64,000 nucleotides of DNA from Candidatus Bathyarchaeota archaeon (GTDB lineage: Archaea; Thermoproteota; Bathyarchaeia; Bathyarchaeales; Bathycorpusculaceae). This document shows, piece after piece, positions 68 to 25,648 of this stretch. Each line of letters opens with the position of its first letter. Position 1 is the stretch's first letter. Under the pieces are notes generated by a model. That model was not told the DNA's origin, made no database searches, and saw nothing but the letters and a program-made list of their open reading frames with translations. The position numbers and the translations under genes were made by a program. The stretch covers positions 192,001 to 256,000 of the forward strand of contig CAWDYC010000003.1 of the NCBI GenBank assembly GCA_963806535.1. The letters run 5' to 3'.

Positions 68-331
68 TTAACCTAAACGACCTTACAGACTATACATGGC
101 TTTTAAACGCCGTAAAAGATACTAAAACAAAATTGGTCCTTAAAGAGCAAAATCAGCCGATTGCACTTTTGTACCTTTAGGCAAAAAAGCGGTGTGCTCC
201 TGTACGGTGTTCGATCACCGTAAACAAAATCTGCGTTCCCTCAGCGTCTAATCTTATTCAATTGCGATGAACCGAGTGTTTAGTCAAAATACTTACCCTA
301 AAGTCTTATATTAAGAAAGCACAACTAAAAA

Positions 332-892
332 TTGATGAGCCTACCTACACTTGATCCAGCAGAGTTTGAAACTCTACGATCCACTTTAGTAAGCACTTAC
401 AACTCACAAACTACCGCTCATGTAGGATATATAATAGCTTTTGCCATAGGCATCGCAGCCATTCTTTACCAAATTGACTTTAAGACTTTCTTTAAAGACT
501 ACCCATCAAAAAAGCAGCGTTATCCTTTATTTTATGTTCCATTAAGTGGTCTAATTGGAGGAATCGTCTTCCTTTTTTACCGCGTAATTTTCTGGGCTTA
601 TATGAGTACGTATGTCTTACGTGTACCCGCTACACAAGTTGCAGCATTGCTTGCTGCGTATGCAAGTGATCCAACTGTCACTGAGATTTATGCGATTCAA
701 CTTAGCTGCACTCAAAAATTTGTTGGAACGCACAGTTTAGCCAGCACTTTTTACTCTTTTGCAAGTAATTCTCTTTTAGATTCTACGTTATTATTTTTGG
801 GGTTTTCCATCATTGCGTTCTTAATAACTTTGCTATTAGACTACATTTTGTACAAAAAGAAAGATACACCCGTTAAGAAGAACAACAACTAA
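332..892 (+). CDS. Hypothetical membrane protein (element cargo)
   Basis: 186-aa ORF with about three hydrophobic segments; no family recognised. Confidence 0.7.
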   Translation: MMSLPTLDPAEFETLRSTLVSTYNSQTTAHVGYIIAFAIGIAAILYQIDFKTFFKDYPSKKQRYPLFYVPLSGLIGGIVFLFYRVIFWAYMSTYVLRVPATQVAALLAAYASDPTVTEIYAIQLSCTQKFVGTHSLASTFYSFASNSLLDSTLLFLGFSIIAFLITLLLDYILYKKKDTPVKKNNN

Positions 893-977
893 ACTCTAAG
901 TTCATTTGACGACTACTGCCCAGTTATATTCATATGGATACGATTCTGCGGGTTAAGGCCGCCAAGCGAAAAACGTT

Positions 978-1861
978 TCAGTTTACTCCATTTTCCATTG
1001 TAGCTAAAGCACTCAAGGTTCGGTCCCTAAGCTCTTTGAACGATGGGCTCCAGTAATGGCGTATAAATATGGACGGTGGTATTCTGCCTTGCAACAAATC
1101 CACCTCTTCTTTTATCAGACCGTTTCTAACCATGAATGTGCCAAAGCTGTCTCTAAGTTCATTTATTCTACACCGCATTTTTTTTCGTTGCAACCGTTTG
1201 AGTATTGCATTGTAACCGACTGGTTGGCTTTTTGCAATCTCATCAATTAGGTTTTTTGGCACAATCGATATGTACACATTCTTCGTACCGCGTAAGAACA
1301 GCTTTTTGAATTGAAAGTGCTCCAAAAGCCCATCAGTATTAAGGTAGCAGTCTAACTTGCCTTCTTTTGACAACTCGATTATTTTGTTAAACGAATTTAC
1401 AGCCTCTTCCTTACGCAAACCACTTAGACGCAAATATTCTAAAAGCACCTTTTCCTCAGGTTTAAGCAAAGGCTGTACAGCAGATACCACTCCCATAAAT
1501 CACTATTATGGTTATTGTACAATCGACTGAAAGAGGAGAAGGCATCCCGCTTACGCCACTTAATCCCATAACTTTTTAGAGCTGCCCTGAACTCCTCATG
1601 AAAACCAAGATACTTACAAAGCGCAATCAAAGACTTAATTGAATTATCCCTTAATGACTCTGGAATTGCATCGATATCCCTGAGATTGCCGTATAAAATG
1701 TGATTGTACTTTTTCGTATAGGTCATGATGGTGTGAGCATAGGACTTTGCATATTTTTTGAAAACCCACACCTTAAATTCTGCCCAGTCAAGGTCGCGTA
1801 TGCCTGCTTCGAGGAGCGCTTTACACGCCAAAGGTCGCCGGTTCAACTCCGGCTCGGCCAA
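978..1861 (-). CDS. int: SSV-type archaeal tyrosine integrase, int(C) part; frameshifted near 1495
   Basis: ORFs 1439-1861 and 978-1496 join. Catalytic-type motifs SGLRKEEA, RGTK, ELRD, LLQGR, FIRHYW. The N-terminus (AEPELNRRPLACK) is the antisense reading of a tRNA 3' half. Confidence 0.85.
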
Positions 1862-1867
1862 CCACCA
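1818..1867 (+). repeat. att site: 3' half of tRNA-Val(TAC), not an intact tRNA
   Basis: GC-TTTACAC-GCCAA-AGGTC-GCCGG-TTCAACT-CCGGC-TCGGCCAACCA: anticodon loop, T-arm and acceptor 3' strand present; 5' anticodon strand, D-arm and 5' acceptor strand absent. Confidence 0.85.
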
Positions 1868-1909
1868 TTCCTGCTAAAGGCTGAATCAAGAAGGTTTAGG
1901 AAAAGACTA

Positions 1910-3505
1910 TTATCTAATGATCTTTGCTTTCTTGGCTCTTATCAATAGTTCAAACCCAACGGCAGCAACTACCACAACCACAATAGCAACTGCTATTTCA
2001 AAGTCTGCTTGTGGCCAACTTGAGTCTGCATGATTTTGACTTTTTAAAGCTACAGCGAAAGGTGAGGGAGTAGCAGTGCTAAATGGACTTGATGTTTCTG
2101 TTGGGGCAGGTGTTGGATTTGGAGATTGATTAATGTTGGAGTTTTGATATGGCGTTGGAGTTGGATTTGTGTTTGGGTTTGATGAAGGCGAGGGAGTTGG
2201 TGATGGCGTAACGATAGGGGTTGGGCTAGTTTTTGGAGTAGGCGTTGGAGTTGTGGTTGGAATTGGGGATGGTGTTGCAGTCGATTTTGGTGTTGGTACT
2301 GGGGTAGGTGAGGCAGTGGGAGTTGGCGTTGGGAAGGAAATGTAATTTGGAACTATCGGAGCGGTTGGGTCTGGCGCAGTTAGGAAAGGCACAAAAGTTA
2401 CTTGGTTTGAGATTATTTGGGCGATGGTTTGTTGATCAGTTGTTCCCCACCAATTAGAAGCCATATTTACGTTTAAAGAATATTGATAGTTTTTGACAAT
2501 GTTATTGTTGGTTATGGAGACTGGTCCATATTTGCCTAGGGTGTTCAATCCGACAGTGTTATTGATGATTGTGTTGTGTTGAATAGTTGCTGAGACTGGA
2601 GACATAGGTCCCGTGAACAAAATGCCGATGTTGTTACCAATGATGAGATTTCTTTCGATTGTTGTTGTTCCATCATATAGGTTAATGGCTGTTTTGCATC
2701 CGAATATGGTGTTGTCTGCTATGTAGGTGTTGCTTCCTGAAGCCAAGATTCCTGTGCCTAGATAGTAGCTTAATGTTATTCCTTGTTCGATGGTGTTATT
2801 CTCGATTACAGGTGTGCTTGTAAGAAAACCTGAGCCAAGTATTCCACCGATGATGTAGTTGTTGATTATGGTTGGTGAAGCATCATTTACTGTTTCAATA
2901 TCTCCGGATAAAGTGTTGCTTGCGATTATCGGCGAGCCACTGGTTACTGTAATTGCGTTGCCATCATCCGCGTTATAAGAGGGAGTGATGGTGCAATTGC
3001 TTATTTTGGGCGAGGCGCTACTTGTGGATATAGAGACGGAATGAAGAATTGAGTTTTCAATTATGCAGCCCTTACTATTTTGTTCATTCCAGCTTTGGCT
3101 GCCAGCAGTGAAAACGATATTTCCATCGCCTGAGGAAACAAAAACTATTGGGCAGTTGTTTGTTCCTCGTGCATATAGGATGCCGTTTACCTGCAGATTG
3201 TACCCGTTTAAGTTAATGGTTGCGCCCGCTTCGACTGTTAAGGTTGTTCCACTGCTTACAATAACTGGGGAGTTAAGATAATATGGACTGTTACTTTGCG
3301 TCCAAGAGGTATCCACATTTATTAGACCCCCAACATTTGTGCCGTTTTGCGCCAAGGTAAAGGGTATGGCTCCAGCCAAAATTAATGAACAAGAGATTAT
3401 GGCAACTAAACATAGGCTTAAAAGTATTTTATTCAAACCATGTTCTCCTTTTAGCGAATCTTTTGCAAAATCGGGAAGCAAAAATAGATTTACTGATTTG
3501 CCCAT
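1910..3505 (-). CDS. Secreted right-handed beta-helix (pectin-lyase/NosD-like) surface protein with Pro/Thr linker and C-terminal TM anchor
   Basis: Signal peptide, IxxNxI repeats, NWWGT motif, (PT)n tract, hydrophobic tail followed by basic residues. Confidence 0.8.
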   Translation of the reverse strand: MGKSVNLFLLPDFAKDSLKGEHGLNKILLSLCLVAIISCSLILAGAIPFTLAQNGTNVGGLINVDTSWTQSNSPYYLNSPVIVSSGTTLTVEAGATINLNGYNLQVNGILYARGTNNCPIVFVSSGDGNIVFTAGSQSWNEQNSKGCIIENSILHSVSISTSSASPKISNCTITPSYNADDGNAITVTSGSPIIASNTLSGDIETVNDASPTIINNYIIGGILGSGFLTSTPVIENNTIEQGITLSYYLGTGILASGSNTYIADNTIFGCKTAINLYDGTTTIERNLIIGNNIGILFTGPMSPVSATIQHNTIINNTVGLNTLGKYGPVSITNNNIVKNYQYSLNVNMASNWWGTTDQQTIAQIISNQVTFVPFLTAPDPTAPIVPNYISFPTPTPTASPTPVPTPKSTATPSPIPTTTPTPTPKTSPTPIVTPSPTPSPSSNPNTNPTPTPYQNSNINQSPNPTPAPTETSSPFSTATPSPFAVALKSQNHADSSWPQADFEIAVAIVVVVVAAVGFELLIRAKKAKIIR

Positions 3506-3555
3506 TCTGTTTTCCTCACAAAACTTTCTATTTTTTTTGAATTAAAAGCATTCTC

Positions 3556-3595
3556 GTCAAGAATTCTTAACGAACAGTAGTCAAACTTTCTTGAC
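3556..3595. promoter_or_regulatory. Tandem palindromic operator pair (GTCAAG-N4-CTTGAC consensus)
   Basis: GTCAAGAATTCTTAAC (3556-3571) and GTCAAACTTTCTTGAC (3580-3595), next to a minus-strand TATA-like TTTTAA; same layout at 10526-10565. Confidence 0.65.
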
Positions 3596-3644
3596 TAAAC
3601 TTTTCTGCTGTTTCTTCCCTGAAAGCTAGAATTAAATGCCTGAA

Positions 3645-21601: not shown

Positions 21602-22102
21602 GCCGCCTCCTCGCCTTTATCAATTTGAATGACATCTCCCAAAGTTAATTCTTGACTAGCAGAACGAGGAAGAGGAGTGCCCTTTTCTTCAGAAATCGGA
21701 ACAAGCAACTTGATTTTTAACATATGCTCAAGCTTTGAGGCAAGCTGATTGTTAGGCGCCATCTTGCCAACTTCAAGATTTCTCAAAACTGAAGCTTTCT
21801 CATTTATTCTTTTACCTAATTCTTCGTGGGTGAGACACTAGTTTTTCCCGTGCTGCTCGTATGGTATTTGCGTAGTCTTCCGTGACTTCTTGAGTTAATT
21901 GCACATTAGCGACCATTGGTTTTCTTGAAACCATGCTAATTGGTGCCTGCGGTTTTTTGATAGCTTGTCTGGGAGCAGCTGGTTCTGCATAAACTATTTT
22001 TCCATGTTTTGAGCATTCAACGCAAACAGTTAGTCTTGCTCCTTCAATTACTGCTGTGATTGGTTCATCGTGAATTTTGTGTCCGCAGACTTCGCATCTC
22101 AA
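21580..22102 (-). CDS. mbf1: Multiprotein bridging factor aMBF1; frameshifted near 21830
   Basis: MRCEVCG...VCVECSKHG Zn ribbon, HTH, and LTLGDV tail across two ORFs. Confidence 0.9.
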
Positions 22103-22187
22103 TGTAGGCTTTCACCTTTTAACTGTCTTTATTATATTGTTATGTTTATACTTGTCGAAACAACAAAAAAGTAATGATGGTGAAAAT

Positions 22188-22649
22188 ATGGATAACACGC
22201 TTGGCAAATTGAGGGCTATTGCTGATTACCAGTTTGGGAAAGGGGTAGGCGCAAAGTTGTTTTCCGAAGATATCCAGGTTCAATATTCTCCAAGAACTGG
22301 TAGAATACGTTTTATCAACTTAAACGGTGAAAGATTAGCTACTCTACGTCCAACTGACGGCTTGCTTTCTTTAAGCATTAAAGCAGCCAAGTTGATGTCG
22401 GAAAATACTTCTTTTGCAAAGTGTTTTGTAACGATACAAAATGAGGTTTCAAAGTTTATTGCTAAGGGAGGAGACGTTTTTGCCGTTCACGTTGTTAAAG
22501 TTGATCCCGACATACGCGCTAAAGACGAAGTCATTGTGAAAGATGAGTCGGGAAATGTTTTGGCGGTTGGTCGAACGCAGCTTTCAAGCGCTGAGATCGT
22601 TGCTTTTAAAACCGGCGTAGCTGTTAAAGTCAGACACGGAATAAAATAA
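22188..22649 (+). CDS. PUA-domain protein (similar to the archaeosine TGT C-terminus)
   Basis: ADYQFG, RLATLRPTDG, GDVFAVHV, GVAVKVRHG. Confidence 0.85.
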   Translation: MDNTLGKLRAIADYQFGKGVGAKLFSEDIQVQYSPRTGRIRFINLNGERLATLRPTDGLLSLSIKAAKLMSENTSFAKCFVTIQNEVSKFIAKGGDVFAVHVVKVDPDIRAKDEVIVKDESGNVLAVGRTQLSSAEIVAFKTGVAVKVRHGIK

Positions 22650-23086: not shown

Positions 23087-23287
23087 TTCCGAGGCTCAAA
23101 ATACACACATTAAAGCTTGAAAAAAGGACAAATCTAGGTCCTTGATGTCGCATCCTATTTTGTTCTCTTTTTTTAAATTGAGTGGTTAGCAAATAGAATT
23201 TGGGAAAGATTTGAGTGAAAATCTGGTAAATCAATTAATAATTTGTCTCGTAAAAGAAGTAGAAAACAAGCAAAGAAGAGAGTAAGA

Positions 23288-23590
23288 ATGAAGCAGGCAC
23301 AAGTGTATAGATTGGATTTAACCAAAATAAATGGCAAAGGAGACTTCGCCTGCCCCAGATGTGGAGCAGCCATATCTCCAGATGATTGTACAGAAGAGGC
23401 ATACTCCATTCTGGAAGCGAAAGTCGATAACCAAGGTTTGAACGAGTTGGAGATCCAGTGCAACTCGTGTTCAAGTTTTCTCTACCTAACTGGTTTTTCT
23501 TTGCTGCAGGAGCTTTTAGAAAAAGATGGAGAGAAACTTGTGAATAAGAAAAAGAAGAAACTCAGAACCTCCATTAATCAAACAAGATAG
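23288..23590 (+). CDS. Small zinc-binding protein (CPRCG...CNSC)
   Basis: Two CxxC pairs and a basic tail; ATG at 23288 within ORF 23243-23590. Confidence 0.7.
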   Translation: MKQAQVYRLDLTKINGKGDFACPRCGAAISPDDCTEEAYSILEAKVDNQGLNELEIQCNSCSSFLYLTGFSLLQELLEKDGEKLVNKKKKKLRTSINQTR

Positions 23591-23880
23591 TATCTTACAA
23601 TAATTTTCATGGCAACGATGAAGGTTAAGTTTACTCAAGGTATTCGTTGCTTTTTTGTTAAAATATTATAGGCATTACGCTCCTTACCAAACATGACATC
23701 CTGGCGTGGATTTCTCGAAAAAACACGTCATCCATGCCAAATTGACAAGTCTATGTTAAGAATTAGCTCCAAGACAAAAGTCGTTCCAGCCAAGTTTACC
23801 GAGTGTAATCACAATAGACTGCAAAGATGATCTTTACAAGACATTAGTTGAGGTTAATTGCAAAATTTTTGTTCAAAATT

Positions 23881-23890
23881 TGTTATATTT
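23881..23890 (+). promoter_or_regulatory. Candidate TATA box for the structured RNA
   Basis: TTATAT about 25-30 nt upstream of the 5' strand of the RNA's terminal stem. Confidence 0.45.
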
Positions 23891-23912
23891 CACCTAACAC
23901 TATTACGGTGTT

Positions 23913-24141
23913 GCAGGTCGGGGAGCACGCTTTAATCGTGATGCATTGAGGCAATGAGTGTGTCAATTAAAACAGCGAAAAATTGATGCGCGACAAAAAC
24001 ATTGCTTTGATGGGCTGGGCATTACAATGTTGCAGTGAGGTTATGAGCAGCGTGGTCAAAACGGTGAAAGACCATGTTGCGACTAAGACATAGCCTCAAT
24101 GGACCGCGAACATAAAAGTTAAGGCTCAGACCCAACCTGTA
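23913..24141 (+). ncRNA. Putative novel structured ncRNA with two tandem pseudoknotted domains
   Basis: Terminal stem CAGGTCGGG/CCCAACCTG. Two 69-nt units (23944-24012, 24033-24101) have the same architecture, different but paired stems, and conserved loops. G-U pairs favour the + strand. No ORF. Confidence 0.8.
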
Positions 24142-24306
24142 CTTTCTTCTCAAAAGAAATATCATGTTCGCTTTTTGGTTTGAAAATATGGAATGATGAA
24201 GAAAAGTCCATTAAACTGTTGAGAACAAAATTCAAACGAATAGCTTAGAAAAAAGTTAAGTTTATATCAATTACTACAGCAGAATAGTTCTTGGAAGTTA
24301 GACTAT

Positions 24307-24672
24307 ATGCATAAGCGCATGAATCCTCGAGAGCAAAAACGTATGATGCAACGTATGGGCATGAACATGGACACGGTGCCCGACGTTCAACAAGTAATTA
24401 TCAGGACAAATAACAAAGACATAGTAATTGATGAGCCAGAAGTCGCAATTTTAGAAGTTCAGGGGCAAAAAATGTACCAAATCATCGGTGGGCAAGTTTC
24501 AGAGCAAGCGCCATCAAAACGTCAATCTGCAGCCGCTGCTCAGCCAACCTTTTCTGAGGAAGATGTAAGGTTGGTGGCAGATCAAACTGGCAAAAGCTTG
24601 GAAAAAGCAAAAGAAGCACTTGAGGAGTGCCAAGGAGATTTAGCAAAAGCAATCCTGCTACTTCAATCTTAA
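24307..24672 (+). CDS. nac: Nascent polypeptide-associated complex protein
   Basis: MNPREQKRMMQRMG, EEDVRLVADQTG, GDLAKAIL. Confidence 0.95.
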   Translation: MHKRMNPREQKRMMQRMGMNMDTVPDVQQVIIRTNNKDIVIDEPEVAILEVQGQKMYQIIGGQVSEQAPSKRQSAAAAQPTFSEEDVRLVADQTGKSLEKAKEALEECQGDLAKAILLLQS

Positions 24673-24709: not shown

Positions 24710-25648
24710 ATGAAGGGCTTGGCAGTGCTTCAAAACGTAGATGTAGCTGTAGTTGGACACCTCTGTATCGACACAATAATATTGCCATCCAGAACAGCGT
24801 CGTTTGTTGTTTTAGGAGGAGCAGCAACATACACTTCTTTTGCAGCCAAACGTTTGGAAGCAACAGCCTCTGTGATTTCGAAAGTCGGCGGGAGTTTTCC
24901 AGATGCTTATTTGTGGTGGCTCAAACAAGAAGGTATTGATATTTCAGGAGTTACAAAACGGGCGGATGAGTCGACAACATGTTTTGAATTGACCTACAAC
25001 TTGGACTTATCTGAAAGAAATCTGAAACTGAAAAGCAAAGGAGCACCAATCGGCTTAGCTGATGTTCCAAGAGATTTGCAGGCAAAAGCCATCCACATCG
25101 CACCTATTGCCAACGAAGTGTCACTCGAAGTAGTTGAGCACCTCAAGAAATGCGCTGATGTTTTATCAATTGATCCACAAGGGCTACTTCGAAGCTTCGA
25201 CGAAGCAGGAAACGTGACGGAAAATGCCTCCGTTGACAGTCAAATATTTGGTCTAATTAACATTTATAAGTCATCACAAAACGAAATTTACCAATTAACT
25301 GGCGAATCAGAATTAAAACCTGCAATAAGAGCGATTCATGATGTTGGAGTTGAAACCGTCATAGTCACGATGGGCGCAAAAGGCTCATTGCTTTCAGTTG
25401 AAGGAGCACAATATAATATTGCAGCGTGCCCTTCACAAGTTTTTGTTGACCCAACAGGCGCAGGAGATGTTTTCATCGGCGGTTTCCTAACAGAATACCT
25501 GCGACAAAAAGATTCGACTTGGTGTGCCTGCGTTGGTTCAGCTGCTGCTTCGGTTGTTGTGGAAGGATTAGGTCCTACCTATTTTGGCAAAAAAGAAGAA
25601 ATTTATCGCAGAGCCAAAACTTTGTATGAAAAAGAACTTAAGCAATAG
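24710..25648 (+). CDS. PfkB-family carbohydrate kinase
   Basis: GGAATY; VDPTGAGDVFIGGF signature. Confidence 0.9.
   Translation: MKGLAVLQNVDVAVVGHLCIDTIILPSRTASFVVLGGAATYTSFAAKRLEATASVISKVGGSFPDAYLWWLKQEGIDISGVTKRADESTTCFELTYNLDLSERNLKLKSKGAPIGLADVPRDLQAKAIHIAPIANEVSLEVVEHLKKCADVLSIDPQGLLRSFDEAGNVTENASVDSQIFGLINIYKSSQNEIYQLTGESELKPAIRAIHDVGVETVIVTMGAKGSLLSVEGAQYNIAACPSQVFVDPTGAGDVFIGGFLTEYLRQKDSTWCACVGSAAASVVVEGLGPTYFGKKEEIYRRAKTLYEKELKQ

Follow-up and report, generated by a model that had tools for sequence, protein, structure and literature searches.

A free-standing gene of Bathyarchaeia gives rise to an abundant circular RNA built of pseudoknotted modules

The gene and its promoter

The stretch of DNA analysed here (the window, 64 kb of the genome of Candidatus Bathyarchaeota archaeon) encodes, around the region of interest, a TGT_C2+PUA protein (22077-22649), a basic 115-aa zinc-ribbon protein that no family matches over the cut-off (23243-23590), a NAC protein with a UBA domain (24307-24672) and a PfkB kinase (24710-25648). 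Between the second and the third of these lies a genuine, hitherto undescribed gene for a small non-coding RNA, which stands on its own in the genomes of these uncultured Bathyarchaeia and whose features are collected in Table 1. The sequence-only reading of this locus had noted a TATA-like box upstream of the RNA and a pyrimidine run downstream of it, and both are found. Using a strict pattern, an A/T hexamer could be located 28-34 nt (20 nt in one case) before the model start in 47 of 68 relatives, and the remaining 21 were seen by eye to carry TATA variants at the same position, for example TTTAAG and TTTATC. We infer that the pyrimidine-rich trailer is a probable termination zone. In loci L017-L037, which form subfamily B of genus g1, the trailer holds a conserved, terminator-like hairpin (GUGGA...UCCAC, followed by 6-8 U) at 10-60 nt 3' of helix P1; this hairpin is absent from the window copy, which belongs to subfamily A.

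The genes next to the RNA vary among the species groups of the genus. Since neighbour genes differ between lineages and the RNA has a TATA-like box of its own, we regard the gene as independent. The earlier proposal, of an archaeal RNA that is transcribed on its own and contains a pseudoknotted tertiary module twice over, is therefore supported, by this promoter as well as by the covariation described below.

Table 1. Positions of the RNA gene, its parts and associated loci. Unprefixed positions are those of the window; other positions are given with the genome, contig or locus to which they refer. BHB, bulge-helix-bulge; Pa and Pb, outer and inner helix of a module; A1 and A2, alignments of two-module and one-module sequences.
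Feature	Position	Strand	Remarks
TATA-like box, TTATATT	23883-23889	+	centre about 27 nt 5' of first P1 base
Minimal precursor, P1 5' strand through P1 3' strand, 228 nt	23913-24140	+	223.6 bits with model R1; the relatives behind this model include the present sequence itself
P1 5' strand (BHB outer helix)	23913-23922	+	partner 24131-24140
P1 3' strand (BHB outer helix)	24131-24140	+	RNA-contig depth zero from 24132 on
BHB central helix, 4 bp	GAGC 23923-23926 with GCUC 24124-24127	+	all cells paired in A1 and A2
BHB bulge A, ACG	23927-23929	+	predicted cut 23928/23929
BHB bulge B, AGA	24128-24130	+	predicted cut 24129/24130
Mature circular RNA, 201 nt	23929-24129	+	contig depth and head-to-tail joint
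P2	GCUUUA 23929-23934 with UAAGGC 24120-24125	+	100% of cells paired; changes one-sided only
P3, encloses module 1	23938-23943 with 24020-24025	+	93.1% paired; two-sided change in 3/6 pairs
Module 1	23944-24017	+	Pa 23944-56/24000-12; Pb 23958-68/23981-91
Module 1, further parts	unpaired A 23957; loop 23969-80; bulge 23992-99	+	
Module 1 pseudoknot	23973-76 (CAGC) with 24014-17 (GCTG)	+	
P4, encloses module 2	24027-24031 with 24109-24113	+	76% paired; two-sided change in 2/5 pairs
Module 2	24033-24106	+	Pa 24033-45/24089-101; Pb 24047-57/24070-80
Module 2, further parts	unpaired A 24046; loop 24058-69; bulge 24081-88	+	
Module 2 pseudoknot	24062-65 (CGGT) with 24103-06 (ACCG)	+	
Pyrimidine-rich trailer	24141-24176	+	T5 run at 24172-24176; no RNA-contig depth
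About 215-aa protein	L170:765-1421	-	divergent neighbour
About 215-aa protein, copy in the window genome	G000:C3:86194-86811 (L198:1453-2130)	-	
Loci with other cargo	L195:960-1123; L196:1501-1668; L197:1501-1661(-); L189:101-262(-); L217:333-485		
Loci with other cargo, continued	L207-L209, L212, L213, L215, L216		

Fold and covariation of the modules

Each of the two units consists of a 13-bp outer helix, an A(G), an inner helix of 10 bp (11 with its closing G-C) and a 12-nt A-rich loop, together with a 3' bulge of 8-9 nt that faces 1-2 nt. At the hinge of each module, a single A faces an 8-nt bulge of the GAC.AAGA type, and the module as a whole is about 90 nt long. The outer and inner helices, loops and bulges described in the sequence-only reading are all present, position for position, and both units share the same layout. 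The core of the loop pairs with the four bases directly 3' of the outer helix, folding the hairpin back on itself. On the + strand, the minimum free energy (MFE) is -81 kcal/mol with a z-score of -5.3, a value equalled by none of 200 shuffles, and the z-score of the - strand is -3.0.

Alignment A1 comprises 32 two-module sequences; it omits L020 (the same in sequence as L036), L010 with its three modules, L025 and L029 with one each, and the short chance matches L030 and L031. With both pseudoknots included, the tandem model pairs 88.8% of its 2623 cells, as against 32-39% when the partners are slid, and two-sided changes are seen in 50 of 83 pairs, values that none of 500 shuffles matches. 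P1 is paired in 94.1% of cells with two-sided change in eight of its ten pairs. The outer helix, inner helix and pseudoknot are paired in 84%, 95% and 100% of cells in module 1, and in 79%, 86% and 93.7% in module 2. Alignment A2, with 37 one-module sequences from several families and orders (L085, truncated where its contig stops, and the broken L087-L089 being omitted), has 89.7% of 1823 cells paired, as against 28-42% in slid controls, and two-sided changes in 40 of 50 pairs. Its pseudoknot is paired in 95.9% of cells, with two-sided change in two of four pairs. The covariance-model search for relatives and the covariation analysis, which had been named as checks, thus come out in favour of the helices and the loop-3' pseudoknot.

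The earlier claim of covarying loop-to-tail pseudoknots is upheld. Both pseudoknots pair; within A1 two-sided change is confined to pseudoknot 2 (three of four pairs), pseudoknot 1 being invariant there, and the one-module relatives show pseudoknot covariation as well. Among the relatives, the pairing takes the forms CAGC/GCUG, CGGC/GCCG, CAAC/GUUG and CGAC/GUCG, along with G.U intermediates. The small hairpin suggested to precede each unit is not conserved, as the first pairs in 48% of cells and the second in 84% with no two-sided change, and the bases concerned instead build helices P2, P3 and P4. In the one-module RNAs, P2 and P3 are fused into a single 13-bp helix. A nested fold, in which the 5' arm of module 1 pairs with the 3' arm of module 2, is preferred by MFE and pairs 88% of cells, but with two-sided change in only two of nine pairs and with one column pair failing in 16 of 32 sequences. 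We rejected this fold, which is also at odds with the RNAs that have one or three modules.

RNA contigs and the circular product

Evidence for the RNA itself was drawn from Logan contigs rather than reads; these reflect its level indirectly, and depths are sums over related organisms. Twenty runs from 16 studies share few words with the stretch, and four of them, from four studies, were used over the region 23700-24400. Three (X4, X5 and X12) are RNA, and X1 is flagged as 'RNA? probably DNA'. In all four runs the contig depth is confined to bins spanning 23916-24131, the one exception being a depth of 19 in bin 23892-23915 of X1, and it is 0 across 23700-23891 and 24132-24251. Within 23916-24131, the depth is 229-3602 in X4, 335-3482 in X5, 4-120 with a single empty bin in X12, and up to about 6 million in X1. 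At the adjacent downstream NAC gene it is about 1-9 (8.6 at most).

In each of the four runs, contigs pass from 24129 directly back to 23929, a step back of 201 whose position is unambiguous (one such contig in X4, two each in X5 and X12, and nine in X1), and loose contig ends run through this joint (..GGCTCAG/GCTTTAA..). For example, a 231-nt contig of X5 (record 25) covers 24036-24129 and then 23929-24065, that is, a full turn plus 30 nt. The junction string has 0 occurrences in the genome DNA or in any relative locus examined. The strand and the exact ends are assigned from covariation (with its many G.U pairs), the promoter and the motif described below, a bulge-helix-bulge (BHB). Because the depth ends at these limits and the joint falls on the predicted BHB cut sites, we take the mature RNA to be a 201-nt circle. 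The product is circular and very abundant, and support for this is strong. The sequence-only reading had expected a linear mature RNA of about 230 nt, which this result replaces; the discrete transcript that it had proposed to look for in metatranscriptomes does exist at 23916-24131, but not at the anticipated extent.

The terminal helices form a bulge-helix-bulge motif

The closing helices that had been proposed (GAGC/GCTC and CAGGTCGGG/CCCAACCTG) are present, but they do not close the mature RNA: they constitute a BHB that is removed by processing, a motif that was spotted only once the joint was known. Its layout runs from P1 through a central helix of exactly 4 bp and two 3-nt bulges on opposite strands, ACG and AGA, which lie between the outer and inner helices, the latter continuing into P2/P3; each bulge sits 3' of its own strand of the central helix. 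Pairing of the central helix is complete (128 of 128 cells for A1, 148 of 148 for A2), and the AGA bulge is almost invariant in both alignments. A BHB is cut after the second base of the bulge, following the 37/38 rule of tRNA. Judged by the joint, both bulges here are broken after the second base, and the breaks are symmetric, with the inner piece closed into a circle in 4/4 runs. This arrangement agrees with the definition of a BHB as a 4-bp helix between two 3-nt bulges in the available text of PMC4090602.

The genome encodes two tRNA_int_endo (EndA splicing-endonuclease) paralogues and RtcB. Transcription from the TATA promoter yields a precursor of at least 228 nt whose ends pair as P1; EndA would then cut this precursor and RtcB would join the ends of the excised piece. 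In the circular fold, the GC at 24124-25 changes its partner upon ligation from G13 C14 (23925-26) to G17 C18 (23929-30) of the precursor, and the ligated P2 becomes a hairpin capped by a UCAG tetraloop (24126-24129). The circle carries the two modules side by side. Taken together, we read the locus as a stand-alone gene whose transcript undergoes BHB excision to a circle with two pseudoknotted modules, and we give this reading, with a platform role for the circle included as a guess, a probability of about 0.72.

Known RNA classes

Searches with Rfam 15 gave no match at the gathering score over the 64-kb window and none at E<=10 over 23700-24350, ribozymes and riboswitches included. The locus had not been matched by eye to SRP RNA or RNase P RNA, and it is neither of these nor 5S rRNA, as these RNAs sit elsewhere in the genome (SRP RNA with 145 bits, 5S rRNA with 69.8 bits). 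For RNase P RNA there is a 189-nt candidate on contig 9 (G000:C9:153724-153912; L038:1501-1689) whose score against RF00373, 22 bits, falls short of the cut-off; the CR-I and CR-V-like P4 strands are retained in it, and 87 model positions of the specificity domain are lacking. This candidate could represent a Bathyarchaeia RNase P RNA reduced in the manner of type T, and the model of that type, RF02357 (RNaseP-T), did not match. In view of the candidate, an RNase P identity for the circle, which had been considered on account of P4-like strings, was dropped.

Other classes were tried against the structure and rejected. An H/ACA guide does not fit, as the internal loop has 1 nt against 8 nt and hence no two-sided pocket, the inner helix covaries right up to the loop, and ACA is not conserved in the one-module forms. 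A kink-turn at the hinge is ruled out by a G-C pair that a K-turn register would break and that is kept in 36 of 37 sequences, next to a pair that covaries; the K-turn look-alike at the termini (5' GGGGAGC / 3' GGCUCAGACC) is the BHB, which is cut. A cis-acting riboswitch is at odds with downstream genes that differ, are convergent or are missing, and with the excision of the RNA. A viroid- or Obelisk-like replicon is countered by the DNA gene, of which 34 of the genus's 41 genomes have chromosomal copies.

Distribution and copy forms

By covariance models and blastn, the RNA was found only in Bathyarchaeia, in forms with one, two or three modules. Model R1 matches 34 of 41 genomes of the genus (26 of 30 of high quality), 75 of 151 in the order and 25 of 151 in the class, where the matches include other orders; with model R2, 10 of 151 genomes sampled across the phylum match, all of them within the class, and none of 131 in other classes. 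Within the order, the RNA is present in 33 of 34 genomes of family f11, 19 of 19 of genus g16 and 20 of 20 of genus g18, the last with one-module copies. A 'patchy, accessory' distribution suggested by blastn was dropped when the covariance model recovered copies that blastn had missed. An exact pattern, applied with one genome per species, retrieved 75 loci, of which 70 are titled Bathyarchaeia or Bathyarchaeota, two 'uncultured archaeon' and three bacterial. One of these three is a chance match and two are true copies on AT-rich contigs (L094, titled Limnocylindrales, and L122, titled Bacteroidales) that are probably mis-binned archaeal sequence. No viral contig matches the RNA. A guess that the hosts might be ammonia oxidisers found no backing, since AmoA was missing from six genomes, a weak test in that its control was silent too.

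Genomes carry one to four copies (four in G052). The window genome has a second copy that is 78% identical (G000:C3:49298-49521), and scans of this genome for the cassette return these two copies only, besides AT-rich chance pairs; the strict scan skipped the window copy owing to a C.A mismatch in P1. A natural three-module form is seen at L010 (G013:C12:34746-35066), with about 320 nt between the P1 strands. Decayed copies also occur: of L089:801-1004 (G025) and L087:801-943 (G116), in one the BHB is missing its 5' half, and the other ends after module 1. L020 and L036, on contigs 9 and 3 of G001, show 100% identity that extends over flanks of at least 1.4 kb on either side; they reflect a recent duplication or else a duplicate made in assembly.

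Genomic neighbours and a candidate protein partner

In families f11, f5, f12 and f6, the gene occupies a single conserved site, flanked on one side by a divergently transcribed protein (about 215 aa) and on the other by an ATP-dependent DNA ligase in convergent orientation, and 20 upstream and 18 downstream flanks cluster among the 32 loci compared. In genus g16 (L081-L086, L183-L188), a small ORF, whose ribosome-binding site is GAGGUGA, begins 20-55 nt 3' of P1, and its product varies by locus (small heat-shock-like, cold-shock-like, zinc-ribbon or dodecin-like).

The protein of about 215 aa has 1716 homologues, which are unnamed; the titled ones are from Bathyarchaeia, save P0112 (Nitrososphaerota) among the matches listed. 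Searches against Pfam, NCBIfam, PADLOC and PDB sequences gave only sub-threshold matches to YraN/UPF0102. A structure model with a pLDDT of 92 predicts a PD-(D/E)xK nuclease fold for residues ~47-202; structurally it comes closest to 3dnx, with a Z of 9.5 over 104 residues, and to a XisH-like protein, with a Z of 9.2, and the top Foldseek matches are restriction-endonuclease-fold proteins only. Residues E54, D81, E94 and E96 are invariant. Counted by hand over the 151 genomes of the order, RNA and protein are both present in 71, the RNA alone in 4, the protein alone in 18 and neither in 58, a co-occurrence that overstates the link, as the genomes are related and not independent. The protein is not adjacent to either RNA copy in the window genome. 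In family f24, it is present in 27 of 27 genomes with a match to R1 in one of 27, and the cassette was found in none of the five loci inspected; G102, a single contig, has the RNA and no protein. We consider the PD-(D/E)xK-fold protein, a conserved divergent neighbour of the cassette in many lineages, a possible partner of the circle.

The same protein adjoins further cassettes that have the same promoter and BHB and a different cargo (G045, G053, G062, G132 and G089). These cargos, found in other genera of Bathyarchaeia, are either long rods, some of them near-perfect hairpins, or belong to a type in which AACCGAUCGUCC and GGAGGCAAAUAGGGGG-like strings are conserved, and their only Rfam matches are spurious ones to plant miRNA hairpins. 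Nine of 19 further loci match R2 at E<=1, on the expected strand every time, and the pseudoknot-module RNA is the commonest cargo found. Bathyarchaeia might accordingly possess a dedicated circular-RNA cassette with a strong promoter, a conserved BHB and a swappable cargo, whose very abundant circles would form a new RNP with the conserved, lineage-specific PD-(D/E)xK protein, for example an RNA-loaded or RNA-restrained nuclease, an idea that we regard as doubtful.

Function and alternative readings

As for what the circle does, we tentatively guess that it could serve as an exonuclease-proof multivalent platform, each module binding one protein or small ligand. A platform is favoured by the presence of one to three modules on one scaffold, by pseudoknots that differ within an RNA and by conserved unpaired bases near the pseudoknot and the hinge; having different pseudoknot sequences, the two modules would keep their folding independent. 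We favour a protein partner over a metabolite. Each module might instead be a metabolite aptamer and the circle a sensor that acts in trans or as a buffer, in effect an 'orphan riboswitch' of one to three tandem aptamers. The conserved unpaired bases do gather where loop, joining strand and hinge should meet, and the A-rich flanks of the pseudoknots and the tandem repeats recall tandem aptamers. However, the neighbours vary with no conserved downstream gene, the RNA is excised and no riboswitch family matches at E<=10, and we think this unlikely. The supposition that the circle is an intron-like by-product, the working product being the ligated flanks or a downstream mRNA, finds some encouragement in the g16 ORF with its Shine-Dalgarno site shortly after P1. 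It is nonetheless highly improbable, given that these ORFs vary by locus, that the flanks have no depth where the circle reaches hundreds to thousands (X4, X5), and that selection acts on the helices and pseudoknots of the circle.

A linear RNA of about 230 nt, its ends held by GAGC/GCTC and a 9-10-bp terminal helix, would account for terminal helices that are genuine, covarying and required in the precursor; we consider it very unlikely nevertheless, with zero depth on the 3' strand of P1, near-zero depth before 23916 and a joint that excludes P1 in 4/4 runs. There is next to no likelihood that a known RNA is present in disguise, be it a permuted SRP RNA, RNase P RNA, 5S rRNA, an H/ACA or C/D guide or a K-turn RNP. 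Such an identity might be suspected from the ACA after some modules, from the first impression of a K-turn at the termini and from multi-hairpin H/ACA RNAs, which come as one to three units, but the SRP RNA, 5S rRNA and RNase P candidate lie elsewhere, Rfam is silent at E<=10, a two-sided pocket is missing and the K-turn register is excluded. Similarly, a selfish or viroid-like circle, an RNA of a mobile element or an assembly artefact of tandem DNA could be circular, very abundant and present in one to four copies per genome, and yet we give such an origin hardly any credence: the gene is chromosomal and promoter-driven, its synteny is conserved across families, viral contigs hold no match, the junction is absent from DNA, and the joint lies exactly on the BHB cut sites in four studies.

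Relation to known systems and significance

Tandem riboswitch aptamers and the ToxI RNA of type III toxin-antitoxin systems consist of repeated pseudoknotted modules in variable number per transcript, and the RNA described here may be likened to them by description, not by sequence. Unlike these, it lacks both a regulated gene downstream and a co-oriented toxin next to it, its modules stay joined in contigs, and it is inherited vertically with conserved synteny. Archaeal circles that arise from a BHB are known, namely excised tRNA introns and circular pre-16S/23S rRNA, as described in the available portions of PMC12558985 and PMC4090602. The motif and the joint at the bulges are the same, as are the enzymes inferred (EndA followed by a ligase like RtcB), whereas in the present case the RNA has its own gene and promoter and the circle is a conserved structured end product, not a tRNA intron or an rRNA intermediate. 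Closer still, the permuted SRP RNA of Thermoproteus is restored through circularisation (PMC4731332, available part) and, as that text has it, is likewise a free-standing non-coding RNA that works as a circle produced by the tRNA-splicing machinery; there, however, a known RNA is encoded by a permuted gene, while here the canonical SRP RNA is elsewhere and the cargo matches no family.

The same partly available sources describe a C/D box sRNA inside the tRNA-Trp intron and circular C/D sRNAs (PMC12558985, PMC4090602), the latter made, by the available account in PMC9014305, with a different ligase and no BHB. These too are small circular archaeal RNAs, but the one described here has no C/D boxes and lies outside any tRNA. 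Viroid-like covalently closed circles reported from metatranscriptomes are, so far as the available text goes, equally small, abundant and highly structured (10.1101/2022.07.19.500677), in contrast to which the present RNA has a chromosomal DNA gene, a host processing motif and no match to a ribozyme family. In the searchable literature, to the extent available and exclusive of supplements, whose lists of circles could hold this RNA, we found no description of it. The BHB route of biogenesis is known, and what is new is a stand-alone circular-RNA gene with this modular fold.

Stand-alone prokaryotic genes that yield a structured circular RNA are almost unknown, the permuted SRP RNA being the nearest case that we found. 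The natural BHB cassette resembles those by which circular RNAs are nowadays expressed in cells, going by the available part of a 2026 bioRxiv preprint. The module itself offers a new fold-back pseudoknot as a target for work on structure and partners. The RNA family is lineage-wide, strongly covarying and modular, its depth is far above that of the neighbouring mRNA in four environmental RNA data sets, and its hosts are a major group of uncultured archaea of sediments, peat and soils.
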